Assembly (NCBI GenBank): GCA_964188305.1
Contig: OZ076890.1
Reading direction: 5' to 3' (one strand)
Origin: Podarcis bocagei
Lineage: Eukaryota
DNA: 64,000 nt
In this document: positions 3,667 to 57,918 of the stretch, one piece after another
How the letters are laid out: each line of letters begins with the position of its first letter
How positions within the stretch are numbered: the first letter of the stretch is position 1
The notes under the pieces: generated by a model
Databases searched by the model: none
What the model saw: the letters and a program-made list of their open reading frames with translations, nothing else
What the model was told of the DNA's origin: nothing
Position numbers and translations under genes: made by a program

Positions 3667-4301
3667 AAAAGGGAGTGTTATTGGGGTGTGACAGGGGTGC
3701 ATCAGAAACCCTTAGGTTGGATCATAAAACTTTTCAGCTTGGCCATGTGACCTGGCAACCAGTGTCATTTAAGCTGGCAGAGAGGCAATTGTAGCTCAAA
3801 CTGTATTTTAAAGGCTTTCCTTCCCATTTGTCAGGCTTTGACTGGCTTACTGCTGAGTGGAGTTTGGATTCAGTGTAACTTGTGCCAGCCTAAGTTACAC
3901 CTGAATGGTAAAGGCTGCCCTTGTGGGGGAAACCACTGCAACTATCCTTCTAGAACTGGGAAGGATTTATCCCATCAGAATGAGCTACCATGCTGGCATT
4001 TTTATCTAATTCTGGCCAAAAATAACTTGAAGAACCTCCAAATTTGCTACATTTTTTTCTAGGTAAAAACCTAGAATGTGCAGAACCCTCTTCAGAAACT
4101 TCCTCAAAATTCCTCAGGTATTTCATCTGAGTATCGCCAAATTAAATTACTCAAAATGTTGATGGTAACATACATATTCTTTATCATACCTCACCCTATG
4201 TGAGGTAAGATGCAGCCACCTTGTGACATTGGCTGAACACAGATCAAATGTAGTCTTTCTTGTCAATTAGCTAAATTGTGTCCCCCATCATGAAGGGCAC
4301 G

Positions 4302-5066
4302 TGTTGTGGTGAGATCACCTAAACTGCCTCCGTGTTGTGGGGCGGGACTGTTTGGATAGCCACAACAACCATTTGGTTACCCCTTGGTTGCTGGGGAAGA
4401 AATTTGGCCTGTTGGGTAGTCTGTTGGCTACTGAGGGGCTATTTAAACTGCTGCACATCACTGGGAGCTGTCTCTTTCTTGCGACGTGCATCGAATCACC
4501 CTCCCTCCCTATAGTTAGGGTTGTTCTTTGGACTGGCTATGCCTGTCTAGGGGTCGTCTGTTTTGGAGCAGGGGCCTGGTAGGAATTTGCCATTTGGCTG
4601 ATTGGCTGGTGCCATTTGGTTTTTGCCTACCGTGTAGCAAATCATCACAGCTTTGTAAGGCTGGTGGTTAGGCTTTGGTTCAATGTTTTGTGGAGGGGAA
4701 GTGGTTGGCTGTGGCTGCCCTGCCATTGCTGCTGCTAGGGAATTCCGTTAAAGGAATCCAGGAACTCACCTTGTTTTGTCTGTTCCGCTTTCAGGGTTTA
4801 GGGCCACGCCAGAGCCCCTGGGAACATATGGGGTGAGCTCCATGGTCCCCCAGTATGTTTTCCCTTACTGTCCTCTGGTGGTGCCCAGTGTCAGTCCTGT
4901 TCTTGCCACAGTGCAGGTTCAGGTAGTCGGGAACCAATGCCTAGGCTACCACTCACATGCTGTAATTCAATAAAGTTGTGGCCAAATTATTGCCAAAAAC
5001 CTTAAACTAAATTTCTCTATTGTGTATTTATTTTGGGAGTGGTTTTGGGGGTCTTCACATGCAACA
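4302..5066 (+). mobile_element. Non-coding structured element, copy A (imperfect ITRs, no TSD; LTR- or DIRS-like)
   Basis: TGTTG...CAACA ends within an imperfect inverted repeat of about 30 bp, TATTTAAA at 4440, AATAAA at 4969, core shared with copies at 34.7 kb and 44.3 kb. Confidence 0.7.
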
Positions 5067-6324
5067 CTGAGAGACTTGAAATTACAGCCGGGAAAGTAAC
5101 AGCTAGTGAAACATTTTAAAATCATTTGCAGTTGCAAATTTGAATTACCTTCTTTACTAATAATATGGAGTCTCCAAAGTAGGTACAGTCATATATTGCA
5201 GAGGTGTACTAATTATCATTCTGCCACTTAATATATATGTACTATGGAAGAAGGATTTGAGGATACATCAAAGGTGATAGAGCAGTTTGTAGCAGGATAA
5301 ATAGAGAGCAGCTATGCTATAAGCCTCCCATTCAAAAGGGCCGTAGAGTGTGCCCAAAGAGCTTCCTCAACAGGGCAGAGGCCTCATTATTGTGCTTGCA
5401 CATTGTGCCACAGGCATCCAGGGTCCCATACAAGGCCTACAAAATCCTGCTGTTGGCTCCACTAGACAAAATACAAAAGTCTAGAGTAAACAGCACAGCC
5501 ATCTGCTCTCCATCTTACTGCTGTCTGAGACGTTACTGTATTCTCTGAATGTACAGAGAGCGTGATTTGCATTCATGTCAGTGGGTACTTTCAGCCAGAC
5601 AACTGTTTGGTTGTTAAATTGTGTCACTGCCACTGTACATGCAGTAACTTTCACCTGTGTTACCTGTGGATATGTTCTCAGTAATTAAGTGCTCTCAAAG
5701 GGGAGTGAGAATCAGGTAGATTTACAGAGCTGGGGTGAAGGAAATCGCAGGCCTTCACAGCTTGTGACACACAAAGTCAAAAGCAGCTTTCAAGCCTGTC
5801 TTCAAAACATAAAGTGGGGGAATTCAATTCAAAGGTCAATAAATCTGGCATATTCAAGGAGAAACCCTGTGAAGTTGAAATGTTAGTTAACAGTTCAGAG
5901 ATTCAAAGGTTTCATTCCTCATTAATCTGATGAAGTGTCTTTTCACTGTTGTCGGAAGACAGACAAAGGAATCAGAAAAAAAAACCATCTAGAGGACAAG
6001 CTATAAAGAAATGGTTAATTAATTATTGAGGTCCACTGGTCCATTGCTTTATAACTGAGGCCATCATTTTATTAACTGTGGATACTAGGTGTGCATTGGC
6101 TCTGTGTGTACACTGAATAATGAAGTGAATCAAAGTGATTTGGGCTGGGCCTTCATGTTACTGCATGGGATTGCTCTGTTAAAAAGGTGTGTCAAGGTGA
6201 ATCATGGAGTGTCAACCTTTCAATTGACTATATTTCCTCATTTCCCACCATAAAGTTAAACACACCACTGCCCCCCTTCCTTTTCCATTCAGAGAAATGA
6301 AACCAAACTGGGCACCTGGGCAAC

Positions 6325-7651: not shown

Positions 7652-9581
7652 CAGGGGTCAGCAAGCTTTTTTGGGGGTGGGCCAGTTCACTGCACCACAA
7701 ACCTCCTGGTTGGCCAGAGTGCATGTGTGTGTGCGCGCGCGCATGCACGCACATGTGCATATGACAGAGGGGGCTTCTCCCCCCCTCTCTCTAGCCCTTC
7801 CCGTTCCCCTGCCTACCTAGGGTGCTGCCAAGAGGCAGAGGCTGGTGGCGGCAGCGGTGGTGGAGGAACGAGCAGGCTGCTCGTTCCTCCTCCGCTGCCG
7901 CCACTACCAGCCTCTGAGATGGAACCAGCCCATGGAAGTTCATTGACTGTGAATGGAACATCTTTTGACAGATAGTTAAAAAAGAGAAACATATTGATTC
8001 CAATGTTGCCTTTTGCATTCAAAAGAAACAAAATATTTGAAAAATGAAAGTAACTTTCTTTTGTTGGACCTGCTTTCAAAAGATGGATACAAATAGAAAT
8101 TGTCTCCTCTAGAGGGAACTTGTTAAACTGTTGCTGGAGTCGATCTGGGGATTTCACAGCTGTGGAGATTAAGGATCGTGAGACCAGACTCTGACCTTGG
8201 ATAAAATTGTGTTTAGAAGAAGTTTTGGTGCTTGCTTTTTGCAAGACAAGTGCTTTGTTGGAGCAGCTGCATGAGAAGATGGATTTGATGACTGTTGCAG
8301 TCAAAATCTTTGGACAAACAGTGAATACTCATATAGAAACCATTCAGGAACCAACCCAGGAATCTGTTTTGACAGGGCAAGTGCAAGGGCAGAAGATAAT
8401 GGAGGAGGTTGCTGTTGAACCTCAAGTAACACAAATGGAGAGACCTGAGGCCCTGCAGGAGCATAAGCTGCTGTTTTTGAAGACTGAACCTGGAGAAAGT
8501 CAGATATGGAGAGAGGGAGTATCGTTTGGTTGGGAGATGGGAAGTTGGATGGATCCCCCTAGGCAGGGACGTTTTGATTTTTGGGATTTGGTTTTGGGCC
8601 ATGGGGGGGGGGTCTGGAGTTGTGGGGGCTCTTAACTTTGGAGGGACTTTGAAACATGCTTTTAAATACTTTCTGGACTACAGTGCTGACTATGGAGAAT
8701 GGGCTGATCTGTTGAGGGGAGACGGAGATATTGTTGGGTTGGAGTCTCCCCAAGACCTACTCCTCAATGAGAAAGGAAAGAAATTAAGAAAAAGATCAAC
8801 AAAAGACAAGGTAAAGTGCAGGTATAAACAAGAAGAAGATCTGCAGAAGGGACATGGAAAAGACTTAAGAGCCTCGGACATAAGATCACCAGGTTGATGG
8901 ACTAGATGGAATGGACAGTAAGGACTGACTTAACCCAAGACCAGGAAGAAGAGACGTTGGATGAGGATTAGAAGAAAGTTTTTTTTAAAAAAATTATTTT
9001 GAGAATTAGTGTAAAATTAATGAGTATTAGGAAAAATGTTGGAATGAAACTATTTGGCTTTAGTAGAAATGATATAAGCAGTTATGTATAAATAGGTATT
9101 AAGTTTTAACTTTTAAGGTACTTTATGGTAAGATAAGGTTAAAATAAATTAAGGTAAATTGAATGACAGAATATAGTGAAAGATGGAAAGGATTTGCTGA
9201 GATAATTAATAGGTTAGATCATTAAGATAAATTATTCAACAAAAATTGAGAAAGATGGAAAGAATTTGCTGAAATAATTAATTAAACTAGAATACAAAAA
9301 GGGAGGTGTGAGGAGGTCGATGAAACAAGTAAATGAAAGATAAAGATATGGAATATTGGATGTGTGTTTTAATGTTATTGTTCTTTTTTGCTGTATTGTT
9401 GTATTGGTTCTTATGTTTTTCTTTCTTTCTTTTTTATGTATTGTAATGTACAGTATGTCTTGTTACATTTTTTTTTGTTTTCTTTTCTTCTTTTTTCTGT
9501 AATTTTTAAACTTCTAATAAATATCTTTCTTTTTTTTAAAGAGATGGAACCAGCCCATGGGCCTTAGGTTGCCGACCTCTG
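7652..9581. mobile_element. Non-autonomous hAT DNA transposon, interrupted by an L1-derived insert
   Basis: TIRs caggggtcagcaa / ttgccgacctctg; 8-bp TSD tcttagca (7644-7651) / ccttagca (9582-9589). Confidence 0.85.
7936..9540 (+). mobile_element. Non-autonomous L1 derivative (diverged ORF1, ORF2 almost wholly absent, L1-type 3' UTR)
   Basis: Perfect 20-bp TSD gagatggaaccagcccatgg (7916-7935 / 9541-9560); ORF 8526-8897 aligns by eye to the ORF1 C-terminus of the L1 at 14.4 kb; AATAAA and T/A tail. Confidence 0.85.
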
Positions 9582-13640: not shown

Positions 13641-14389
13641 TGTTGTCAGATTCTTACAAGGTAGCTTAATGATTAGCTCTTAATATCCCACAAGACTCAG
13701 TCCATGCCAACAAGTGCCTTTTCCAGACAGCGCTGGTGCCCATAGATTGCAGCAAAGTGCCGGGCAAGGTTTTGTCCGCTATCTTGTCCATGTGATGGGC
13801 TTATGGGGAAGAGCTGTCCTGTGAGCAAAGGGGAAGGGGAAGCCTATATAAGGCTGCTTCCCCTGGAACTCAGGGTCATATTGCCTCAAGAGTTTCCCGC
13901 TCACCCTCAGATTGTAGCCTTCACTGACTGAGCAATTTTGGGGCGCTGGTTGAAAGTATTTTTTTTCTTGGTTGGGGTTTGTTCCACCTTTCTCTCAGTG
14001 AAATTATGACCTTCCCTTGTTTGTATGAGGGCAGAAATGTCATTGGCCAGGATCAACATAGTATGGGGGAGGGCATACACCCCCAAGCTCAGGTTGGGGT
14101 ATCTGCCTGGTTGCAATCTGCCCCCTGGCCCCCCAGTGAGACCTTGCTTGCTCAGCTTGCACCATGGCAAGGTTCAGCCCTGGCAGACTCCCATGGAATG
14201 GGCTGAGGGCGGTCCAAACCCAGTGAACCCATTCCATCAACATGAGGTTTGTGAAATGATGAACTAATCCTGGCTCCAATGCCATGCCAAACCTTACCCT
14301 TTCTGCTACTGTCAAATAAAGCTTTGAGAGTTGCTGCCATTTATAAAATTAATACACTTCAGATCATTCACATACCAACTCCCTGATAT
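13641..14389 (+). mobile_element. Non-coding structured element, copy D (divergent)
   Basis: TATATAA at 13845, long-range complement 14038-14053 / 14267-14284, CCAATGCCATGCCAAACC motif, AATAAA at 14315; 5' boundary approximate. Confidence 0.5.
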
Positions 14390-14418
14390 TAGTAGTAGTA
14401 GTAGTAGTAGTAGTAGTA

Positions 14419-15263
14419 AGATAAACCAATCCCTGGAGACTTTAACAAAGCAGAGCTCAGAAAATACACAAAAATTAACAGAAATATCAGCAAGACTAGA
14501 TCTGAACACGGAATCTATAAACAAATTGGTCCAGGAAAATTCTGCAACACGTAAAATTGCGGAAGAAGCTAGAGCTATTGCTGGAGAGACTCAAGAGAAC
14601 TTAGAACCGATTGCCAAAAAGGTGTATGAGCATGACGCAACTCTGGCTTTGTGGGAATTACAGAGAAAAGAGAGAAATCTGAAATTGAGATTAATTCCAG
14701 AGAACGAAGGTGACAATCTCGTGGAGTTCTTAACACAAGAGTTTGCTGACTGCTGGGAAGATCTGGAGGAAGACGAATTTAAAATCACAACAGCGTTTAG
14801 ACTGGGCAAAAAACAGGACAGAAAGACCCCGAGGGATTGTTTGATTACCCTCAGATCTAAGGAAGAAAGAGACAAAATATTAAGACTGCATTTTGAAAAG
14901 GCCTTGCAAATTGGAAATTCAGCTGTACAGATCTTTAAAGACATCCCAAAATATATCTTGGATCTGAGAACCTTCTATAAGGATTTGGTTCTGCTGTTAA
15001 AGAAAAACTCCATCCTCTTTAGGTGGGAATTTCCACAGGGACTGTCTTTCAACTACAAGGGGAAGAAGGTGAAAATAAAGACTATACAAGATAAAGAGAA
15101 ATTTTTGGGAAGAAACCGAGAGGACTTACAGAAGGGAACTGTGGACCCACTTGCAGAACAGAGGAGAGCAATAGACATTTTGAATCTTTCGTTTGGACAT
15201 ATTCCACCACCATCAGAGGAAGAGCAACAACTTGGAGCTGTTGGAGGAGTGTCAGAAAAATAA
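14419..15263 (+). CDS. L1 ORF1p, 5'-truncated (coiled coil, RRM, CTD)
   Basis: Heptad-like N-terminal part, RKERNLKLRLIPE, AFRLG...TPRDCLI, VQIFKDIP, FRWEFPQGL; stop TAA at 15261-15263. Confidence 0.9.
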
Positions 15264-15267
15264 CAAG

Positions 15268-17940
15268 ATGGCTCTGCAATTCCTTAGTTGGAATTGTAAT
15301 GGGCTCAATGTGCCTTTGAGGAGACGACAAGTTTTTCACATTCTGAACAGAGAACAACTGGATTTGATATGCCTACAAGAAACCCATATAACCAGAGCTC
15401 ACAGGAGATTACTTATAAACAAAAGACTAGGACAAGAATTTATCTCATCAGACAAAGTTAAAAAAAGAGGAGTTGTGATATATGTAAAAGAGAAATGGGC
15501 TCCAAAAATGATGTTTAAAGATGAACAAGGGAGATATTTGGCAGTAGAGATACAAGTACAAGGAGAAAAATTTCTGATAGTTGGAATTTATGCACCAAAT
15601 GAAGGTAAAGCTGAATTCTTCAAGAAACTTCATGAAACCTTGACGGACTATCTGGATTATAATATGATAATTATGGGAGACATGAACGGTGTGGTCTCCA
15701 CTAACATGGACAAGGCACAAAGACTAACAGCTACCAAGGAAGGGAGACTTCCTAAGACTTTTTTTGAAATGACGGAAAATATGGACTTAATAGACATATG
15801 GAGAACAAGGAACCCTCTGGAGAGAGAGGGAACCTTTTTCTCCCAAGCAATGACGACCTGGACCAGAATCGATCAAATCTGGATTACTAGTGGGATGGCT
15901 CCAAAGATTAAGAAGGTAGAAATCTGCCCAAAAACTTGCTCCGACCACAACGCTGTGAAGATGGAAATGAAACTTACAACAACTGGTCAATTTAGATGGA
16001 GAATGAATGACACCCTCTTCCGAGACAAGGAGATCCTTATGAAGACCCAAAAAACTTTAAAAGACTACTTTGAAATAAATTTGAGGGCTGATGTGGAAAA
16101 AAGAGTGATCTGGGACGCAAGCAAAGCTGTGATGCGAGGTTTTCTGATTCAACAAAACTCAATAAAGAGGAAAAAACAAAATGAGAAAAAGGAAAAGATT
16201 TTGGAAAAGATAAAGGAAGGAGAGAAAAAATTAAGAGTAAAACCAAAGTCCCAGGAGATTTTAAGAGAGATTAAGTTATACCAAGCACAATATATGGAAT
16301 TGATGAACCAAGAGATTGAATGGAAGATAAAGCAAATGAAACAAAAGACATTTGAATCGGCAAATAAATGTGGTAAACTTCTGGCATGGCAATTGAAGAA
16401 AAGGCAGAAATTAAATACAGTTACAAGCCTAGAGGTGGTTGGAAAGAACATATCTAAACCTAATGAAATTAGAAATTGCTTTTTGAGTTATTTTAAAAAA
16501 CTTTATACTCAAGGACCGCAAAACGAAGAAGATATAGACAAATTCCTTGACAAATATGGATTACAAAAAATCTCTCATCAAAGTAAGATGGATCTGAATC
16601 AGAGAATAACAGAACAAGAGATAGAGGCTGCCATTCAGAATATGCAATTGGGCAAATCTCCAGGACCAGATGGACTGACTTCCAGATACTACAAATCTTT
16701 GAAGGAGTGGTTGATTCAACCATTAAAAGGAGTCTGTAATGAGATCCTAGAGGGAAAAAAGGCACCTGAATCGTGGAAAGAAGCGTATATTTCACTCATA
16801 CCAAAGACAGAGACTGAAAAGACTCAACTGAAGAACTACCGCCCAATATCATTACTTAATGTGGATTACAAAATTTTTGCAGACATTTTGGCAAAAAGAT
16901 TTAAAAAAGTGTTGATGGAAAAGATTCATAAGAACCAAGCAGGCTTTCTCCCAAAAAGACACCTAGCAGACAATGTAAGGAATATAATAGACATTTTGGA
17001 AAAGTTAGAGGTGAATATAAATACTAAAGCAGTACTGATTTTTGTGGACGCGGAGAAAGCCTTTGACAATATATCTTGGAGTTTTATGATAAAGAACCTT
17101 CATGGGATGGGGGTAGGCCAAGCTTTTGAGAATGGTATGGGTGCAATATATTCTGAACAAAAAGCTAAGTTGATTGTAAACAATGTAATAACTGAGGAAC
17201 TTAAGATAGAAAAAGGAACACGACAGGGGTGCCCAATTTCCCCATTGCTCTTTATTTCAGTTCTGGAGGTGTTGCTGAACATGATTAGAAATGACCAGCA
17301 GGTCAAGGGTGTACAGGTCGGAGCTAAACATTACAAGCTAAGAGCATTTGCAGATGACCTAGTATTGTCTTTGCAAGAGCCAAACACTAGTACGAAAAAG
17401 GTGCTAGAAATAATCCAACAGTTTGGCCAGGTAGCCGGATTTAAGTTGAATAAACAAAAAACTAAAGTCTTAGGAAAAAATTTAACAGATATGGAGAAGG
17501 AGAAATTCCAAGAGGAGACAGGGTTGACGGTGGTCAAGAAGGTGAAATACCTAGGGGTTTATTTGACATCTAAAAATTTGAATTTGTATAAGGATAACTA
17601 TGAAAAATGTTGGTCAGAAATTAAAAAAGATCTAGAAATATGGTCAAATTTGAAACTGTCAATGTTAGGCCGAATTGCAGTGATTAAGATGAATGTATTG
17701 CCTAGAATGTTATTCTTGTTTCAAACCTTGCAGATTCTTGACAAGATGGAATGTTTTAAGAGGTGGCAGAAAGATATCTCGAAATTTGTCTGGCAGGGCA
17801 AAAAGCCCAGAATCAAATTTAAAATATTGACAGATGCTAAGGAAAGAGGGGGTTTTGCCCTGCCGGACTTAAAATTGTACTATGAGGCAGCAGCGTTTTG
17901 CTGGCTGAAAGAGTGGATGCTCTGGAAGAATGGCAGATGA
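15268..17940 (+). CDS. L1 ORF2p (APE endonuclease plus reverse transcriptase), C-terminal domain deleted
   Basis: MALQFLSWNCNGL, CLQETH, IYAPN, MGDMN, TRIDQIW, SDHN (EN); KSPGPDG, NYRPISLLNVDYK, DAEKAFD, GTRQGCPISP, FADD, KYLG (RT); open reading frame throughout. Confidence 0.97.
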   Translation: MALQFLSWNCNGLNVPLRRRQVFHILNREQLDLICLQETHITRAHRRLLINKRLGQEFISSDKVKKRGVVIYVKEKWAPKMMFKDEQGRYLAVEIQVQGEKFLIVGIYAPNEGKAEFFKKLHETLTDYLDYNMIIMGDMNGVVSTNMDKAQRLTATKEGRLPKTFFEMTENMDLIDIWRTRNPLEREGTFFSQAMTTWTRIDQIWITSGMAPKIKKVEICPKTCSDHNAVKMEMKLTTTGQFRWRMNDTLFRDKEILMKTQKTLKDYFEINLRADVEKRVIWDASKAVMRGFLIQQNSIKRKKQNEKKEKILEKIKEGEKKLRVKPKSQEILREIKLYQAQYMELMNQEIEWKIKQMKQKTFESANKCGKLLAWQLKKRQKLNTVTSLEVVGKNISKPNEIRNCFLSYFKKLYTQGPQNEEDIDKFLDKYGLQKISHQSKMDLNQRITEQEIEAAIQNMQLGKSPGPDGLTSRYYKSLKEWLIQPLKGVCNEILEGKKAPESWKEAYISLIPKTETEKTQLKNYRPISLLNVDYKIFADILAKRFKKVLMEKIHKNQAGFLPKRHLADNVRNIIDILEKLEVNINTKAVLIFVDAEKAFDNISWSFMIKNLHGMGVGQAFENGMGAIYSEQKAKLIVNNVITEELKIEKGTRQGCPISPLLFISVLEVLLNMIRNDQQVKGVQVGAKHYKLRAFADDLVLSLQEPNTSTKKVLEIIQQFGQVAGFKLNKQKTKVLGKNLTDMEKEKFQEETGLTVVKKVKYLGVYLTSKNLNLYKDNYEKCWSEIKKDLEIWSNLKLSMLGRIAVIKMNVLPRMLFLFQTLQILDKMECFKRWQKDISKFVWQGKKPRIKFKILTDAKERGGFALPDLKLYYEAAAFCWLKEWMLWKNGR

Positions 17941-29175: not shown

Positions 29176-30736
29176 TTTGTTATCTATATTGCCAAATTTC
29201 TTTAGCCTTCCCTCAGAATTCAGTTTGTTTCCTCATCAGTCCCTTTAAAAAGTGTGACTACTGCTCCAGTAGCTCATGTATGTAGGCATGAAGCAGAAGT
29301 GTCCTGGAGACAACGTAGGGTGAGTGTTTGTAGAGAATGATGCTCCGTATCTTGCATTTACTGAGCTCTTGGCCCCACTGCCCTTTCTTCTCTATCCATA
29401 AGCCAACTTAAGTCATCTCCTTAAAAGAGAATTCAATATGAACAAACATGTTTTCACTTCAGTAGATTTCACTTGGGTGCAGAAACAATGGATGTAAAAT
29501 ACTTTCTATCAAGTAATTTTTGTGGAAAACCTAACCATTAAAAAGCATTAAATGTTCTCTAATTGGAAGATCAATCTGATCTTTCTAAAAAAAAAAGAAA
29601 GAAAGAAAACAACTGTTTCAGTTTTCTGTACAAAAATGACTCTGCTTCCAATGTAGGTTTTCAAAAATATGTTTTCCTTTAATTGTGTTGACTCTTATTC
29701 TTGCAAATTTGATCAGATTTGTTTTGCTTAAGGATAAACCATTGACGCCTCCATCCTAGGCAGGTTATTCTGAGCTGTTGCTAACAATATAGTTTCTTTC
29801 CTTTAATAAATGAATGGATTTTGTCAGCAAGTTTTGATTGAACAAATATTTCTTTTATCAAATGAACAGACAAGAAGACAGATCCCCCTTTTAGAAGAAA
29901 ATTATAGGAACAGATTGTAATTAATTGTGTTACTAGGCTGATGATAAGCATTTCTGGGAAATTCTGGCAGGAACTGCATAAAATCCTGTTTGAGCTCATC
30001 TGTTCCTTAGGGATGGTGGTATGGATCAACAATGGCTAACCTATGGCCTACCAGATATTGTTGACTCCAGCTCATGCCAGCCTCAGCCAGCATGGCCAAT
30101 AGTCAGTGATGATGGAAATTGTAGTCCAACAACATCTAGAGACCCAAAAGCTAGTCACCCCGATCTCAGATTCCCAAAGTGATTGGATAGTAATTCCTTC
30201 TCTGAAACACTCCTAGTTCCACATCCTGAGCCAGCTACAGAGGCACAACCTTGAAATCTCAATGCATGGTTGAGATGACTGTGTTCAGAAGGAGCCCTCA
30301 TGGATTTGTTAGGCACTGGGGAACATTCAGGGACAAGATGGGCCTGAACAAAATGAATGGGGTCCTCTTGAACTGGGATGGAGCCAGATTGTTGGTGCTT
30401 AAGATAAAAAAGGTGACAGGGAAGCTTTCAAACTGATTGTGGGGGCAAAGTCAACAAGAGCTGGGTGGGGGTCTGATTCAGAACAAATCTCCCCCCTGAA
30501 ATGAAGATGGAAATTTAAATGGAGGAGGTGTAGAACTAGGCATTGCAAGTGCCTCATTTTGTGCCATATTTCTAGGCCCAGGTTGGGTTTTTACAGGTCT
30601 GTGCCTGCGTGGGTTTTGAAAACACACACTTTATCACTGAATTGGAGCAAATGGCAATCAGGTTTTCTGCAGGTTGCCATTTGCTCTAATTCAGTGGTAA
30701 AACATGGGTTTTCCTGGGGAGAGCACTGGGGGGGAC

Positions 30737-31421: not shown

Positions 31422-33154
31422 AATAATAATAATAATAATAAATTTTATTTATATCCCGCCCTCCCCAGCCGAAGCCGGGCTCAGGGCGGCTAACAACAAT
31501 AAAACAGTACAAAAGTACAACATAAACAACATTCTAAAATCATTCATTATAAAAATTAATTAATTCAAGCCACTAGCAACCATTGGGCCAGAGCTCTGCG
31601 AAGATTGCCGAGGGAGGGAGTCAGGCTGTGCCCTGGCCAAAGGCCTGGTGGAACAGCTCTGTCTTGCAGGCCCTGCGGAAAGATGTCAAGTCCCGCAAGG
31701 CCCTGGTCTCTTGTGACAGAGCGTTCCACCAGATCGGGGCCACGGCCGAAAAAGCCCTGGCTCTAGTTGAGGCCAGCCTAACTTCTCTGTGGCCTGGGAC
31801 CTTCAAGATGTTTTTATTTGAAGACCGTAGGTTTCTCTGTGGGGCATACCAGGAGAGGCGGTCCCGTAGGTACGAGGGTCCTAGGCCGTATAGGGCTTTA
31901 AAGGTTAAGACCAGCACCTTAAACCTGATCCTGTACTCCACCGGGAGCCAGTGCAGCTGGTATAGCACCGGGTGAATGTGATCTCGCAGCGAAGACCTTG
32001 TAAGGAGTCTCGCTGCAGCATTCTGCACCCGCTGGAGTTTCTGGGTCAGTCTCAAGGGCAGCCCCACGTAGAGCGAGTTACAATAATCCAGTCTGGAGGT
32101 GACCGTCGCGTGGATCACAGTGGCTAGGTCAGGGCGAGAGAGGTAAGGAGCCAACTGCTTAGCTTGGCGGAGATGGAAAAATGCCGTCTTTGTTATAGCT
32201 GCAATCTGCGCCTCCATGGAAAGGGAGGTGTCGAAGATTACACCCAAACTCTTAACGGACGGTGCTGGCACTAATTGCGCCCCCGCAAGAGATGGGAGTT
32301 GCCCCCCCCAATCCCATATCGCCCCGTCCCAGCCACAGGACCTCTGTCTTCAAAGGATTTAGCTTCAACCGGCTCCCACGTAACCATCCAGCCACAGCTT
32401 CCAAACATCTGGTCAGTGTGTCTGGGGCCGAGTCAGGATGGCCATCCATCAACAGATAGAGTTGGGTGTCATCGGCATACTGATGACAACCCAGCCCAAA
32501 ACTCCGAACAAGCTGGGCGAGGGGGCGCATAAAGATGTTGAAAAGCATCGGGGAGAGTATCGCACCCTGAGGTACTCCACACACCAAGGAGTGGCGCGAT
32601 GACAGTTCCCCCCCAAGCGCCACCCTCTGTCCCCGACCAGAGAGAAACGAGCGCAGCCATTGAAGGACTGTGCCCTGGATCCCCACGTCGGCAAGGCGGT
32701 GGTCCAGAAGTTCGTGATCGGCCATGTCGAAAGCTGCTGATAGATCTAGAAGAATCAGCAGCCCCGACCCGCCTCGATCCAGCTGTCTACGAAGGTCATC
32801 TGTTAGGGCGACCAGAGCCGTCTCGGTCCCATGACCAGCGCGGAAGCCGGACTGGAATGGATCCAGAACTGATGTTTCTTCCAGAAACCCACCAAGGTGT
32901 TCAGCAACCGCTCTCTCAATCACCTTACCCAGAAACGGAAGATTCGAAACCGGGCGGTAATTGGATAGATCTAAAGGATCTAATGATGTTTTCTTTAAGA
33001 GCGGGCGCACCACTGCCTCCTTCAGTTCCCCTGGGAATGTCCCCGTGCCAAGGGACAAATTGATGATATCCCCCAGGGGGGCCCGCACCTCGTCTGGACA
33101 CGCTCTAATCAGCCAAGACGGGCACGGGTCGAGAGGACAAGTGGTGGGCTCCAA
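31422..33154 (-). mobile_element. Young 5'-truncated L2 LINE
   Basis: (TTA)n tail at 31422-31443, GC-rich 3' stem-loop at about 31455-31491, RT ORF open apart from one frameshift. Confidence 0.95.
31621..33154 (-). pseudogene. L2 reverse transcriptase (partial; single +1 frameshift in G8 run at 32302-32309)
   Basis: NYRPVSNLPFLGK, QSGFR.GHGTETAL, LLDLSAAFD, GVPQGAILSP, YADD, SRLDYCN, LHWLPV..RI.FK. Confidence 0.93.
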
Positions 33155-34517
33155 AAGGATCTTTCTCAGAAATATGAAGGGTTGGTTTTTTTGTTTTTTG
33201 TTTTAAGGAAATGTGAATCACTTTTCATTAAACACAAAATGATGTACATTGAGGCAAATAATCCATTGATGGGATGTGGGCTGAAACCAGTTAGGTGCTG
33301 CCAGGTTGTTTAATCAGAAGAACTCTCTGGATTTGGGGAGGAAAAAATGAATTTGCCAGTCCTGAACACTGTCAGTCCCCTAAATACAGGCCCCAATCTC
33401 TTCTGTTTTGCTGCCTGCAAATAGCAAGACATAGAGGGGGTTGGTGTGTGTGTTCTACCCTACTGTAGACAGCATATAAATTAGAGTTTTTGCATTGTGT
33501 TTTGATGCACATTGAAAAATAGTCAATTTAGAGCACAAAAACTTATACTGTAGCACATCATGTTGTGAAAAAGGTCTAGTCTAGCCTTTTCCATCACATC
33601 CTAGATGACTATATGCAGGGTAGGGAGGGTTTTTTTGTACGAAGAAGTATTCAGTCATGTGAATCCTCACATCCAGCATGCACAACCTGGGAGCTGGTTA
33701 ACTACCTCTATGAGAGATTCCCAGTGCTGTAAGAGTAAGCTATAAGAAATATCCTACACAACCAGCTTTGATGGAACTTGGCCACTAAATTGGGGACAGG
33801 GGATAGGGTGTGTAAAAAAGAATAGAGTATGTTAAGAAAATAGACCATAACCCTTTGCACACATTAAAATCGCTATACAATATTAATAATGCTAATCAGT
33901 TACAATAAGGCTCATTTGCTATGCAAGTAGCTGCTGGTTTATTGGTCTTTGTAATTGCTAGATTCATATGAGCCACTTCAAACTGTCTTAAGGACAATGA
34001 AGTGTTTCCAGATGTATTTCAGAAAAGTTAACAAGAAAATACTTGTATCTGATCCTGTTTCTTCCATTAGTGATATTTTAGATAAAATAACAATTCTGGA
34101 GAACACAAGATGTGTTAGATTAACTGAGAAACTGTATCACAAATTATTATTTGTATGTATAAGGGCTGTTAATCAGCTCTGTGCAGGAGCCAGATAATGA
34201 GGACAATTGGAGATAGATATTCAAATGTCTCCTCCACACTGAGCAGAAGTATATCTATAAATCTTCCCACAATTTGGATCAGGGCCCCTACAAAGCTTCA
34301 CATTTCTCTATTGTTCCTGTCCATTACAGATGTCTGTTTCTATATTTCTGTTTCTCTAGGATTATGGGCTTTGCAAGATGTGAGGCTGTGCAACATATTC
34401 CCTGGAGAGCGCTGAAGAAGAACTCTAGATTGTTTTTATTATTTGTTTATTTATTCAGGTTCTTTTCCTGTCAGCTCCCCCACCCCCATTTTCATATGAT
34501 CTTCTTTCATGCTAGAT

Positions 34518-34637
34518 CAGGCATAGGCCCTCCAGATGTTTTGGGACTACAACTCCCATCATCCCTAGCTAACAGGACCAGTTGTCAGGGATGATGGGAG
34601 TTGTAGTCCCAAAACATCTGGAGTTTGCCTATGCCTG
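34518..34637. mobile_element. Palindromic hAT MITE
   Basis: TIRs caggcataggc / gcctatgcctg; internal palindrome; TSD tgctagat / tgctagac. Confidence 0.92.
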
Positions 34638-34645
34638 TGCTAGAC

Positions 34646-35156
34646 GTTGCTATGGACATTGTCTGCTGCCGTATTTGAGGCCAGGCAGAAATTTTTCCAC
34701 TTGGCTAATTGGCAGTGGCCACTTGGTGTTCATCTACCTTATAGCAATCATCACAACTTTGTCAGGTTAGGCATTGGGTAAGCCTTAGTCTGGACTGGAG
34801 GGGAGGTTGTGGCCTCCGCCTGTCCCTCCTTGGTTAAGAGTGTCCTATTGAAAGGATCCCTGAGGAGTTGCTTCTGTCCAATGCCCAGATGGGGGCTAGG
34901 ACCATAGAACTCCTCCAGCAGGTGCCCTTGGAGATATCCCTATTTGATGTAGGTCATAGGCCCCTCCCCAAGTTGTGGTTTACCCTTAGATAGGCTCCCA
35001 GAAGATGGGCTGGAGTTAATTAAATGGCTTGACATAATGCCTATGCCAAACCGTTCACATCTGTGACCTCTTTGAACACAAAAATCTATATACTGCTGTA
35101 TCATCTGGTTATTTCATTACATTGGCAGTGATTGGGTCATGGGTCCTTGGCACACA
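34646..35156 (+). mobile_element. Non-coding structured element, copy B (partial)
   Basis: Core aggcagaaattt...attggc...tctacct...tcacaactttg...taggcattgg matches copies A and C. Confidence 0.7.
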
Positions 35157-35879
35157 AAGCAATAAGCAGGTACAATGTGGCAGCATTTTAATCTTGTATG
35201 TTCAGTTTGCAATAGTAGCCATGAAATCTTACCAGTGAATAGCAACACAAAGAACTCAGAGAATCCTTCCTTGCCTTGTTATTTTTTTATACAAGAAAAT
35301 GGAGGATAAGGTACAGGAACAGGAGTAGTTTATGGTGCATGTTAAAAAGTGTACAAATGGGAAGGAGTAAATGGAGTGTCACATAGAATGGGCTTTAAGG
35401 ACAGAAGATGGAGGCTAGGGAAGGAGCTGAAGCTGGCCTCAATTTTCTCATCAAAGTAGGCAACTAGAGATGATGTGGCAATGATCTCTGCCTTCCCCTT
35501 TAAGGTATTCCCCAACACAAAGCTTGCAAAGGCAAAAGGTAAATAAAGCCAAGCCATAAGCTGGTTTCACATAAAAATCTCCTTATCTGGATTCATGCTT
35601 ATCATTTCTTGGCAAATATGGCTCTTGTAAGTAAGAAAACCCTGGATTTTCTGTAGGGAAGGCTCCAGGTTTGAGGGTGTCTTGACAAAGTGCCTTCTTG
35701 TGCATCTCCTTCTTTGCTGGTGAACCCTGGCTACAGCAACTGAGTCACCATTTTAGTTTTCCACAGTGCTCTGGATCAACACTACATTGGGGACATTGGG
35801 GTCAATTAAAATGCCAGTTCCCAGACTCAGCCAACTCAGAGGTGGGTTGTGGGAACCTATGTGGCCTGAAGATGCTGTA

Positions 35880-39954: not shown

Positions 39955-40185
39955 CACTGGTACCTCGGGTTACAGACGCTTCAGGTTACATTTGCTTCAG
40001 GTTACAGACTCTGCTAACCCAGAAATAGTACCTCGGATTAAGAACTTTGCTTCAGGATGAGAACAGAAATCTCATGGCGGCAGTGGGAGGCCCCATTAGC
40101 TAAAGTGGTACCTCAGGTTAAGAACAGTTTCAGGTTAAGAATGGACCTCCAGAACAGATTAAGTTCTTAACCGGAGGTACCACTG
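39955..40185. mobile_element. Tc1/pogo-like MITE (same family as 26240-26481, opposite orientation)
   Basis: TA-flanked TIRs; internal sequence is the reverse complement of the 26.2 kb copy. Confidence 0.92.
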
Positions 40186-40578
40186 TAGTAATTTATCACA
40201 GTATGGATGTAACCACCTGGGAATCTGGTCATCTGAGCCCTGAACATCTGGCACCTTTGGACAATTCTGTTCCTTCCCCATAGGAACACATTCGCCAAAC
40301 ACTCCTCTGCTGCAAGAAGGAGAGATGGACTCTCCCACAGGGGTCATGTGGGGTGATTTGCCCCATAGGGGAGATGAGGCTGTTGGAGCCCCCTCCGCAG
40401 CATGCCCCCCCTTCTCACTGAGACAGCCTAGGGAGGCTGCATGAGCATTCAGCTCAATCGAGACTTGGGCTTCTGTGTCCCCCCTTTCCTTGCATTGTGT
40501 GGGCCTTGGGTGGCCTTTCAAGGCCAACATTCCTCTTCATCGGCTGAAGGGGATCTGTGTGAAGAAGAGTAGCTCAGA

Positions 40579-41967: not shown

Positions 41968-43889
41968 TCAGTTGGTAGGGGGCTGCAGTTGGAAAGCTAG
42001 AGTCTGAGACTTTGTGGAACAAGTCCCCCGCCCCATCTTTATAATAATAAGAGTAATGATTAAGAGTTCTCTTCTTTGCTGATCATCTTTGTATTTGTGA
42101 GCATCATTGGAGCTTACTTGTTTGGTCAAAATGGCTGCCTTTCCTATTCTCAGATCATTTCCCTCTCAGCCCTTGCTGTGGTTCTGTTTCAAAACACCAT
42201 CCATTTACTGCTCCCACTGGTGGTGAACAATTAGTTGAGTTAACTTCTTAAAAAAAGTTGGTTAAGGGGTTCCTAGGCAATGCTGAATGAGATAGACCTT
42301 AGTATTGCTGTGTATTGGATCAATACTGAGCTAGACAGATTTTCCCCAGGTTCCTTCCATATGAGGTGATGTCACAATTGTGTCCATAATGCCTTAATAC
42401 ACGTTAGTCACTGTCACTTGCTTCAATCATCACATGAAAAATACACACATCACACGTGCAGAGCAAGTAACTTATTAACAAAGCAAATTGCAACTTTCTG
42501 CCTCCCAATAAAAATAAGCTTTATATTCATTTTTTCCTGAATCATGAGCATCCCAACTTCCCTAAGGAATATGCACAAATCATCCTCACATTAAGTGCTT
42601 TAACCATAATGAAAGCTGATATGAAAGCTGATGCAGCTGATACACACTTGGAAGAAAAAAAATGCCAGCAAGCTGACAAAAACAGATTAAAAGAGTAAAC
42701 TTCAGAAGTGCAATAGTGAGAAGCAAATTTAAGACAAGTGTGTGTGTGTGTTGTTGTTGTTGTTGTTGTTTTTTAAATCGAATCGTGTGCCAGATATGAA
42801 ACATGAAGATAAGTGACAAGTACAGTTATTAAACTGCCACCAATGGAGATAGCATCACGATGATCAAAAGACTACTGGGAAAATATAAACAAAACAACTG
42901 CATCCTGAAATACACAATGTAAGTTCCTCTGCTGCAAACTCAGAATCTGCCTTTGGTTTCATAGCACATCTACAGATAGTAGAAGCGGCAACTTTATCAA
43001 GCCAGAGTGTCTTTGCCAGCAGCAAGGAGAGCAGCAATTGCAGAACACAAGCGGGAGATGAAAAGGAAGCAAAATGGAAACACCTTCAAAAATATCCCAT
43101 GGAAGTATATAGAAAAAATAGAACCATGACATGCACAATTTGCAAGGATAAGTATAAAGCAAAGGTCACAGTGTGCCCATGCCCTTATAATGGCATTGAT
43201 GATTTAGCAACTAGCATGTGAAGCTAATTAATGTTGCTACATTAGAACAATGTTACCTATACTTTCAACTTACCTATCTGCACTCTGTCAAGAGATCTAT
43301 CCATCATGTCAAAAAACTCAGAATAAAAGATGCTATCTCTCATTAAGTCTCTGCTTTCAATTTTCCAAATGACTCCCCTACCATTGCCTCAGAATGTAAT
43401 AACCTAATATTTAGGTTTAAGCCAGTCTGTTCCAGAGCAGATGGCTAAAATCCTATCTCTAAATAAGTTCAGGATAGTGATATGAGGCATATCCCCAACT
43501 AGTATATCACACTTCTGCTGCTTCTCTTACCTAGAGGCATCAGAGGGCTATTTTACACATTCATGGACAACTAATGACTAGCATAGTGAATAACTGAAGG
43601 TGTATCACATGGAAACTTGCTGCAAACTGCCTTGAGATCTATAGGTATAGGATGGTATAGGCAGAGCAGGTTGTTTGCAGGTCAGAGAAAGAGAGATGCT
43701 TAGCTAACTTGCAGTTTGTTTTGCTTTCCTTAATAAAGAAACTAAGAACTCAAGGAGACTCCTAAAGTCAAACCTATCTAAATGAAGCAGTTGTTTCAAC
43801 TGGCTTGCAGCCCCTCCTTCACTCTCTAGCTCTCTGCGCCAGGTCCCTCCCTCTGTTATTGTTTGTGGGCCCACGCCCTAATCCTGTCT

Positions 43890-44695
43890 GTGGTGCCCAC
43901 CCCTTACCCCAAATGATGAGACATGAGACCAGAGTATGGGTTCAAATTGTCCACAACTTTATTAAACTTCAGAAGTGGGAAACTTGGCACAGGCCTTGGC
44001 AGGTAACCCTCTCAGCCCGCCTGGCTGAGGATATGCAGGCAGATGAGGTCCAGTGAGAGGGGACTGCAAAGCGCAAACTTACACAGCATTTCCTTCCACC
44101 GACCTTGTCCCGGGAGTTTGACCTACATTCTGCCACTCTAGGGCCAGACACGGTTTTTTTCCTTCAACAGGCCCTGCATGCGCCGCCGCATGGGGAGGGA
44201 GCATGAATGCATCCCCCCTGACTTGATGTTAGACTAAAGGATACTTTGCCAAGGCCTAAAAACTGCCAAAGTTGTGACGAAATGCTACAGGGAAGGCAAA
44301 ACCTGCCAATGCAGGGAAAATTCCTTCCCGGTTCTGAATACAGCAAACATCTTACGACCTCAGCAGCGCCTGTAGATCTGGAACACAAAATATTAACCTG
44401 TAAGGAAAGAATTATTAACTTGATGATCACTGACCTAGGATGAAATTATGGAGGCAAGAAATTATTAATTTGAGGGAGGGTGGGTGGGTGATCCTGGAAG
44501 GCAGATCAGCAAAAGAGGCTTGAGCCATCCTCTTTTCTTTTGGCCTTAGGCCCACCCCCGGCCGGCCGTCCATTGTCCTCCCTGGCCGAGGGCAGGTCAA
44601 AGGCCGGCTCAAGCAGGTAGGTGGCACCTGCCCAGGTGAGCCCCGCTCGGTGCCGCAAACCCCGCCTACCTGTGGGGAAGGGAGGGTGGATATTG
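43890..44695 (-). mobile_element. Non-coding structured element, copy C
   Basis: Minus strand core gggaaggaatttt...attggc...ttttgccttccc...tcacaactttg...taggccttggca and aataaagttgtgg; weak terminal inverted repeat; boundaries approximate. Confidence 0.72.
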
Positions 44696-57216: not shown

Positions 57217-57918
57217 GCTGAGTAGCAACAGGGAGTCAGTAGTGGGGATGGTGAGGCCCAAGCACAAACGCATATTGTATAAAGATGCAAAGCCCTTTTT
57301 TCGCAGCCTGTGAAACATAAATGCGCAGAGTTTTAAAAAAACTGGGCAGCGGCTGCCCACCCATGACTCCCAAGCCTTTCCCGGTCAGTCAAAACAAAGG
57401 GGGCAGGGGGCAGGAGATGGGGGAGGCTCGGGAGTCATGGGCAAGTGGCGCGCCGTTGCCCAGTTTTTTAAAAACTCTGTGCATTTATGTTTCACAGGGT
57501 ACGAGAGAAGGGCTTTGCACCTTGCCCGGCAGAGAGACTGCGTGCCTTGCACCCCTCCTGGGCAATGGCACGCTGCCCGCCCATGACTCCCGAGCCTTCC
57601 CTGGTCTCCTGCCCCCTTCCCCCTTTGATCTGTACCGCCGGATGTCCCCAGTTCCCCTTCTGCAGTGACAGTGGCTGCTCGTTCCCATGGCACAGGAAAA
57701 ATGGCAGGTGCCACGGCAGCAAGCAGCAAGCAGCTCCTGAAGCCAGTCAGAGCCAACTGCGCTACCAGGCTGGCTTTGGGCTGCTGAGGCTGCTGCTGCA
57801 ACGTTTCCTGGGGACAGATTTGCAAATCTGGGGACATTCCCGGGAAAGAATTTGTCCTGGGACAGATTTGCAAATCTGGGGTCTGTCCCCGGGGGGCTGG
57901 GGATGTCTGGTAACCCTA
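57144..57918. mobile_element. hAT non-autonomous element (GGTTACCAGA-type) with internal inverted repeats and (ATG)n
   Basis: TIRs tatggttaccaga / tctggtaacccta; TSD tagtagcc / cagtagcc. Confidence 0.9.

Follow-up and report, generated by a model that had tools for sequence, protein, structure and literature searches.

A solo Ngaro end unit in Podarcis bocagei and the predicted folds of its parent elements

The analysed stretch of DNA, hereafter the window, comprises 64,000 nucleotides of contig OZ076890.1 from the Podarcis bocagei assembly GCA_964188305.1. It contains three copies of a repeat, A, B and C, which a preliminary description of the sequence had grouped together and which are indeed homologous. 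Alignment of the flanks sets the limits of copy A at 4275–5064, placing the originally proposed start (4302) inside the element. Copy A consists of an A repeat, a unique spacer and a B repeat (Table 1). P1, Y, X, the AATAAA hexamer (4969-74) and TATTTAAA at 4440-47 all lie where they had been reported, and the longest Met-started frame has 59 codons, in keeping with the reported lack of an ORF. Transcription would be expected to start ~30 nt 3' of the TATA-like box, within A. The AA dinucleotide at the left crossover is found in 12 of 13 young solos and 13 of 19 family-A copies.

Table 1. Features of copies A, B and C in the window
Feature	Position	Strand	Basis or remark
AA at left crossover, common to the element junction and its target; ordinary TSD absent	4273..4274	+	
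A repeat, promoter part; A1/A2 of full-length elements	4275..4498	+	aligned to young copies
Inner stem-loop of predicted B/A junction hairpin	4277..4301	+	
A arm of junction hairpin (left half of the 'ITR' first described)	4304..4324	+	partner 5042-5064
TATA-like box	4440..4447	+	sequence, alignment
Unique spacer between A2 and B2	4499..4661	+	alignment
P1 region with ENE-like U-rich internal loop	4577..4632	+	covariation, descriptor, folding
P1 arms	4578-83 and 4626-31	+	sequence
X 5' arm, in spacer only	4645..4654	+	invariant
B repeat	4662..5064	+	homology to coding copies
Y 5' arm, at start of B	4669..4681	+	covaries with 4931-4943
Hairpin H2, conserved purine-UUAAA loop	4740..4759	+	covarying stem
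Y 3' arm	4931..4943	+	
Helix V 3' arm	4948..4957	+	partner lies where the SGNH ORF ends, ahead of B1; missing from solos
AATAAA poly(A) signal	4969..4974	+	sequence
X 3' arm, on and immediately past the hexamer	4972..4982	+	first given as 4972-81
B arm of junction hairpin, ending in shared AA (right crossover)	5042..5064	+	
Copy B, older solo from another subfamily, truncated at its 5' end	34645..35157	+	AATAAA deleted
Copy C, solo of third subfamily	43863..44694	-	minimal ENE-like stem at 44329-44290

Copy A is almost certainly a solo end unit, in the order A-spacer-B, from a Ngaro tyrosine-recombinase (YR) retrotransposon. Inverted arms around the ends had pointed to such a recombinase. A search with PF00589 gave 54 matches in open frames, and in all 30 loci fetched the YR is followed closely by a sequence homologous to the 3' half (B) of copy A. 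Twenty YR loci were extended to 10 kb; 14 of them read A1-ORFs-B1-A2-spacer-B2 with repeats 98.7–100% identical, two have the 3' block with no A1 in the stretch, and four stop after B1. The order in young full-length elements is A1-gag-RT/RH-YR-SGNH-B1-A2-spacer-B2, with a spacer of 163–166 bp, a B of ~420 bp and two identical poly(A) signals, one in each B (B1 and B2). The spacer of copy A is 81–84% identical to those of coding copies and its B repeat ~66% identical to theirs; its A part, which gives no BLAST match alone, can be aligned only within the whole unit. Two patterns searched for a junction-bearing parent of family A itself returned no matches.

Pfam searches of the ORFs of two elements identified a CCCH-gag (weak), RVT_1 (E 2.7e-13) and Phage_integrase (E 1.1e-6), the last two over the cut-off in both elements, together with GDSL/SGNH hits (E 7e-4 and 2e-3) under the curated cut-off; no methylase occurs among the nine ORFs of these two elements. 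The R-K-HxxR-W-Y recombinase motif and RNase H motifs are visible by eye, with RNase H matched in Pfam only by RVT_3 at E 0.04–0.1 in two of three elements tested. Relatives of the YR are found in lizards, amphibians and invertebrates, the best named ones being lacertid proteins at 53–67% identity.

The proposed search for autonomous partners of the DIRS, Ngaro or ERV kind thus ended in Ngaro-type coding elements with the same repeats. The initial inference of a non-autonomous Pol II retroelement holds in its Pol II unit, its link to YR retroelements, its lack of a TSD and its conserved sense-strand RNA fold; the further claim of an undescribed non-autonomous system gives way to a solo unit of autonomous elements within the same genome. 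Solo Ngaro remnants and the element class itself are already known, and as a repeat copy A is ordinary.

Split direct repeats in the order A1-ORFs-B1-A2-B2 are the described Ngaro layout (PMC9210276, PMC4157794). Xenopus DIRS-53_XT, a Ngaro element, is described with this order, with gag, RT/RH, YR and an SGNH hydrolase, and without a methylase, as here (PMC9210276). The Podarcis elements differ from that description in the unique 163–166 bp spacer with P1 and X that separates A2 from B2, in the ~420 bp B, in the coding copies that end after B1 (about half of the young ones) and in the RNA folds. They share with DIRS1-type elements, as these are described, a YR, the absence of a TSD and a short shared junction motif, and single-stranded cDNA has been reported for the DIRS1 type (PMC7192593). 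Unlike that type, the parents found here have no true ITRs, ICR or methylase, each of which was tested for.

Sixty loci were sampled across the 150 best SGNH matches; 32 carry B1-A2-spacer-B2 and 28 do not, and 24 of those 28 end precisely at the CAA motif. Termination right after B1 in about half of the young coding copies is seen, for example, in L196, L202-L252 and L121-L124. The number of end units varies between 0, 1 and 2, with a tandem extra unit in L238 and a B upstream in L283; permuted elements, with A-spacer-B ahead of A1, were absent among four single-B elements. In L114, L115, L123, L125, L131 and L133 (~3900-5250) a tandem repeat replaces or interrupts gag/RT, and YR and SGNH are intact; this subfamily, with 100% identical terminal repeats, was mobilised recently, probably in trans. 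L125 is a full element inside a 185-bp satellite array.

We analysed the predicted RNA folds in an alignment of 37 copies from many subfamilies, hand-picked from 93 parsed units (118 tried) and including decayed copies. Of the cells in the named structure, 86.3% are paired, compared with 81.4% after shuffling and 37–50% with partners slid, and 120 show a double change against 48.7 shuffled; none of 500 shuffles reached either the paired fraction or the double-change value. Counted by pair, double changes do not exceed the shuffles (17 pairs versus 16.2). P1 covaries at five of seven pairs with at least 11 Watson-Crick swaps on the tree, Y at six of 12 pairs with a minimum of 10 swaps, and the H2 stem has a minimum of five. 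X shows covariation at none of its 11 pairs and no swaps, and the upper P1 stem likewise has no swaps. What was first described as three nested covarying helices therefore comprises two that covary, P1 and Y, and an invariant X, and P1 lies 5' of X and Y, outside both. Because X lacks covariation, its pairing is argued from complementarity and conservation. RNAalifold, which had been named as a check, gave −1.13 kcal/mol for the 37-copy alignment and recovered just the inner Y among the named helices, missing P1 and X.

When the spacer plus B is folded as single sequences, three young copies have z-scores of −5.5, −3.0 and −1.7, copy C has −3.0 and copy A has −1.6. Stability is ~10–27 kcal/mol greater for the + strand than for the − strand, with similar z-scores on both. 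Across 40 copies the X duplex reaches −14.1 kcal/mol, compared with −8.6±2.2 for shuffled sequences. The 5' arm of X stands before B2 in 32 of 32 young copies and before B1 in none of the 32. At B1, a separate helix, V, lies immediately 5' of the hexamer (median 15 bp, −26.5 versus −18.7±3.2 kcal/mol shuffled, 40 copies), and its sequence differs between two clades; the pre-B1 stretch can also pair 3' of the hexamer (−12.8 versus −9.5±2.1). Given these different upstream partners, V at B1 and X at B2, the two repeats likely fold differently.

A small hairpin ~30 nt before B1, between V and B1 (L114 and others), has a stem that differs by subfamily with pairing kept. Further hairpins with turned-over sequence, among them H2 with its conserved UUAAA loop, occupy the B interior (4740-4920; L114) and are possible candidates for a protein-binding or docking site. 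Rfam yielded no gathering-level match in the window and none at E≤1 within the repeats of four elements. Resemblances to twister, pistol, hatchet, HDV and hammerhead ribozymes, judged by eye from their layouts, were dropped. Our literature searches found no publications on Ngaro RNA folds, a Ngaro ENE or a folded Ngaro junction, parts of which ENE surveys or Repbase/Dfam may cover; the conserved folds of the Ngaro parent are apparently unpublished cis-acting signals.

In the P1 stem an internal loop carries U on each side and is bordered by G-C pairs. The ENE of the KSHV PAN RNA has about five triples. In P1 the U-runs are short, with 3–5 U per side and only three on the 5' side in copy A. A U-rich internal loop between short helices, flanked by G-C pairs, is how ENEs are described (PMC12501189, PMC13541005). 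We searched with an ENE-like descriptor that required G-C pairs next to the loop and that was loose and composed after viewing these sequences; it matched 31 of 32 young spacers (before B2), none of the 32 pre-B1 stretches and no antisense strand. Shuffled 64-kb strands gave 0–2 matches each and the unshuffled window four per strand, two of the eight being copies A and C. The older solos retain it to varying degrees: 18 of 29 in family A, 3 of 19 in family B and 8 of 16 in a further set. Family C keeps the loop though its upper stem is wholly different (z −3.4). In the lower stem, G-C occupies pair 67/125 in 28 and pair 68/124 in 30 of the 37 copies, and the upper pair is C-G in all 27 copies with letters there.

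P1 thus resembles the Evade/Copia93 ENE and that of KSHV PAN in having a U-rich internal loop between short helices with adjoining G-C pairs (PMC12501189, PMC13541005), and the Evade ENE also in its location in a spacer upstream of the retrotransposon's 3' repeat (PMC12501189). Compared with these, as reported, it has a single short loop with a putative triple helix in a vertebrate YR element, and predicted long-range helices, X and Y, connect this loop to the poly(A) site. ENEs of transposable elements have been reported mostly in plants and fungi (PMC12501189, PMC13541005), and function in a retrotransposon has been demonstrated for Evade (PMC12501189).

We consider it probable that P1 acts as an ENE that grips the poly(A) tail, with Y and X clamping the poly(A) site next to it. 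P1 lies ~340 nt upstream of AATAAA and ends ~11 nt before X, whose pairing takes in the bases that directly follow the hexamer; Y and X together would therefore bring the cleavage site beside the P1 loop, where the U-rich loop is predicted to grip the tail of the parent RNA. RNAs that read through B1 would hold the B1/A2 junction needed for rebuilding the ends. Since the spacer precedes B2 alone, only these junction-carrying RNAs would end beside the ENE and be stabilised. Reads from four RNA runs, chosen by species label, numbered 64–99 each on a young element and 181–781 on a common solo. They derive mostly from diverged copies and from both strands, and no pile-ups marking an RNA start, end or poly(A) site occur in these four raw-read runs.

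The preliminary description had the structure hide the poly(A) signal, and a rod of this kind could switch polyadenylation between B1 and B2 in the manner of HIV. X does overlap the 3' end of AATAAA as claimed, the upstream partners of B1 and B2 differ, and in subfamily L118 the pre-B1 sequence is predicted to lie over the first three hexamer bases at B1, which could favour read-through. The overlap, however, covers just the last one to three A, and at B2, the site to be used and not the one to be skipped. Opening AATAAA at B1/B2 costs 1.7/3.8, 0.5/0.8 and 3.2/2.2 kcal/mol in three subfamilies, with no consistent difference between the two. With X placed at the site where termination is needed, these costs leave sequestration unsupported, and a switch would also leave the U-rich loop unexplained; we judge it quite improbable. 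P1 and X might instead be a priming or packaging signal, in which the RNA 3' end folds onto X as a primer for RT or an epsilon-like P1 is bound by RT or Gag. For DIRS-type elements, whose primer is not known, a hairpin at the 3' end has been proposed in that role (PMC7192593). Both X arms are invariant, as expected of a site defined by a protein or primer, and minus-strand synthesis from the spacer would copy A2 and B1. A polyadenylated end could not pair flush at X without trimming, though, and U is abundant on either side of the P1 loop, unlike in a one-sided bulge. We rate this role as unlikely; it could coexist with that of an ENE. A tRNA primer site at X was discarded by eye, there being no TGG start.

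The stabilising role proposed for P1 concerns the parents, and the abundance of the solos bears on what these are. A 17-base spacer motif has 4155 exact matches in contrast to one for its reversed control, with B1 at the expected place in none of the first 30 matches, and among the 26 closest units of one young subfamily 10 are solos and 16 lie in full elements; one young solo is 99.75% identical to a full-length unit. Such dominance and early origin would suit a non-autonomous element that propagates itself, or a family of functional structured ncRNAs, and the mobility of SIRE has been discussed as open (PMC6681497). The reciprocal product, however, is equally common among young copies (28 of 60 coding copies end at B1), so solos and single-B coding copies both arise early. 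Either could stem from recombination in the genome or from the insertion of short cDNAs. If early solos were inserted directly as short cDNAs made on full-length RNA, as may be the case, this would not amount to self-propagation. A solo transcript would moreover be without both ends and the junction. The helices also decay neutrally after insertion. In 27 family-A solos (three of 30 were dropped, one as a duplicate and two for aberrant 5' ends) private non-CpG changes are spread evenly at 2.3–3.5%, helices included, whereas shared changes fall in 0 of 57 helix columns compared with 63 of 658 others (Fisher p 0.006). This combination indicates that selection on the helices acted in the transposing parents and is absent from solos after insertion. 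The ENE-like motif has been lost from 11 of 29 copies in family A and from 16 of 19 in family B, and we consider both self-propagation and an ncRNA function very unlikely. Solos keep the promoter, the ENE and the poly(A) signal, and because they lack the junction they are most likely dead ends.

An ordinary Gypsy or ERV solo LTR with chance self-complementarity would match the length of ~800 bp, the TATA box, the AATAAA and the thousands of copies. TG...CA ends are absent, however, the split A and B halves flank YR-encoding elements, and pairing is far above that of slid controls. The lack of a TSD first noted in copy A also holds: among 19 parsed copies a 4-6 bp duplication is absent apart from one chance 4-mer match, at odds with the annotated solo LTR with ordinary 4-6 bp TSDs that had been named as the refuting case. 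The YR linkage refutes a Gypsy/ERV origin, for which we see virtually no room. Isolated, ORF-less terminal units have been described elsewhere, as solo AB units of Ngaro in Cafeteria (PMC8547959) and as SIRE, which consists of the A2, internal region and B2 of VIPER and likewise has an exclusive segment between its repeats (PMC6681497). The units found here differ from these, as described, in their thousands of copies in a vertebrate genome, their longer spacer and their ENE-like loop.

The imperfect ITRs of about 30 bp first attributed to copy A are better read as the two halves of a junction hairpin. The left arm is internal (4304-4324) and pairs with 5042-5064 only when B precedes A; the arms of copy A then form 18 pairs, and at least 15 pairs form in 14 of 17 family-A solos. 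The hairpin is predicted in all 35 distinct real junctions (median z −5), with a CGC core paired in 33. The predicted fold measures 85–110 nt, with the crossover off the symmetry centre, at a mismatched position of the stem ~15 nt from the loop. In the junction alignment 94.5% of cells are paired, and 34 double changes compare with 6.0 in shuffles (0 of 500). Seven pairs carry a double change, against 4.5 shuffled (35 of 500), and the eight swaps on the tree fall mostly on one split between two clades. RNAalifold recovers the hairpin de novo at −20.75.

The off-centre crossover, together with pairing conserved without sequence conservation, fits a folded single-strand site. We give about even chances to the folded B/A junction being a single-strand recombinase site, which would need only AA in the target. 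The closest parallel is integron attC, in which the folded bottom strand is the recombination site; the two share an imperfect hairpin, sequence turnover, a crossover in the stem, tiny target identity and a tyrosine recombinase (PMC8876359). Unlike attC as described there, the fold reported here is a prediction, belongs to a eukaryotic retroelement and is better on the + strand. G.T pairs favour that strand by 88 to 13, a preference equally compatible with RNA and DNA. The − strand is the one expected as first-strand cDNA. The cDNA of DIRS-1 is reported to be single-stranded (PMC7192593).

Taken together, the parts permit a tentative model, which we hold to be possible but somewhat short of even odds, in which vertebrate Ngaro elements cope with their two identical poly(A) sites by licensing 3' ends through an ENE present only in the B2 spacer and clamped by long-range helices to the cleavage site, followed by integration through an attC-like folded junction. 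How YR retrotransposons choose their RNA ends, prime and integrate is described as largely open (PMC7192593). If correct, the model would mean that a vertebrate transposon grips poly(A) in a triple helix, and would supply a concrete replication scheme for a group of retroelements whose RNA signals are so far unknown. The Podarcis bocagei genome holds many young intact subfamilies, and the covarying folds provide three short testable modules: the ENE-like loop, the poly(A) clamp with its alternative B1 partner, and the folded junction. Through the thousands of solos, promoters and poly(A) signals, and possibly stability elements, are spread across the host genome. The interest lies in these cis-signals rather than in the repeat itself.

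Copies B and C belong to families related to that of copy A. Family A is abundant: scoring 40 of 4119 candidates gave 41 matches 79–90% identical, the window's own copy aside. The families end in the CAA motif, and the left end, where clear (families A and C), starts after AA. Copy B has lost its A part, and P1 is absent from its MFE fold. In runs X23 and X24, hundreds of reads come from one diverged copy-B-type solo, mostly in one orientation (L150 read placement), which suggests that it sits within a host transcript. One junction was found for family C, with the coding part absent nearby. The family C spacer has an extra AT-rich stretch of ~80 bp (44470-44385, −) that ends in a splice-acceptor-like pyrimidine tract and CAG, and a similar motif occurs in another subfamily (L146, L155, L159). 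Copy C lies in or beside a distinct GC-rich repeat-like stretch (45095-44695, −) that starts TGTCAGG and is unmatched by family C loci. Directly upstream of the truncated copy B is a MITE-like long hairpin with 37-bp perfect arms (34512-34643), and similar hairpins occur at 7836-7916, 30045-30141, 30618-30713, 40095-40192 and 57282-57632. The window also contains a LINE at 14328-17940 (+), with an open ORF1 of 311 codons and an endonuclease and RT frame of 918 codons (Pfam RVT_1, E 3e-38), and a second RT fragment at 32252-33202 (−).
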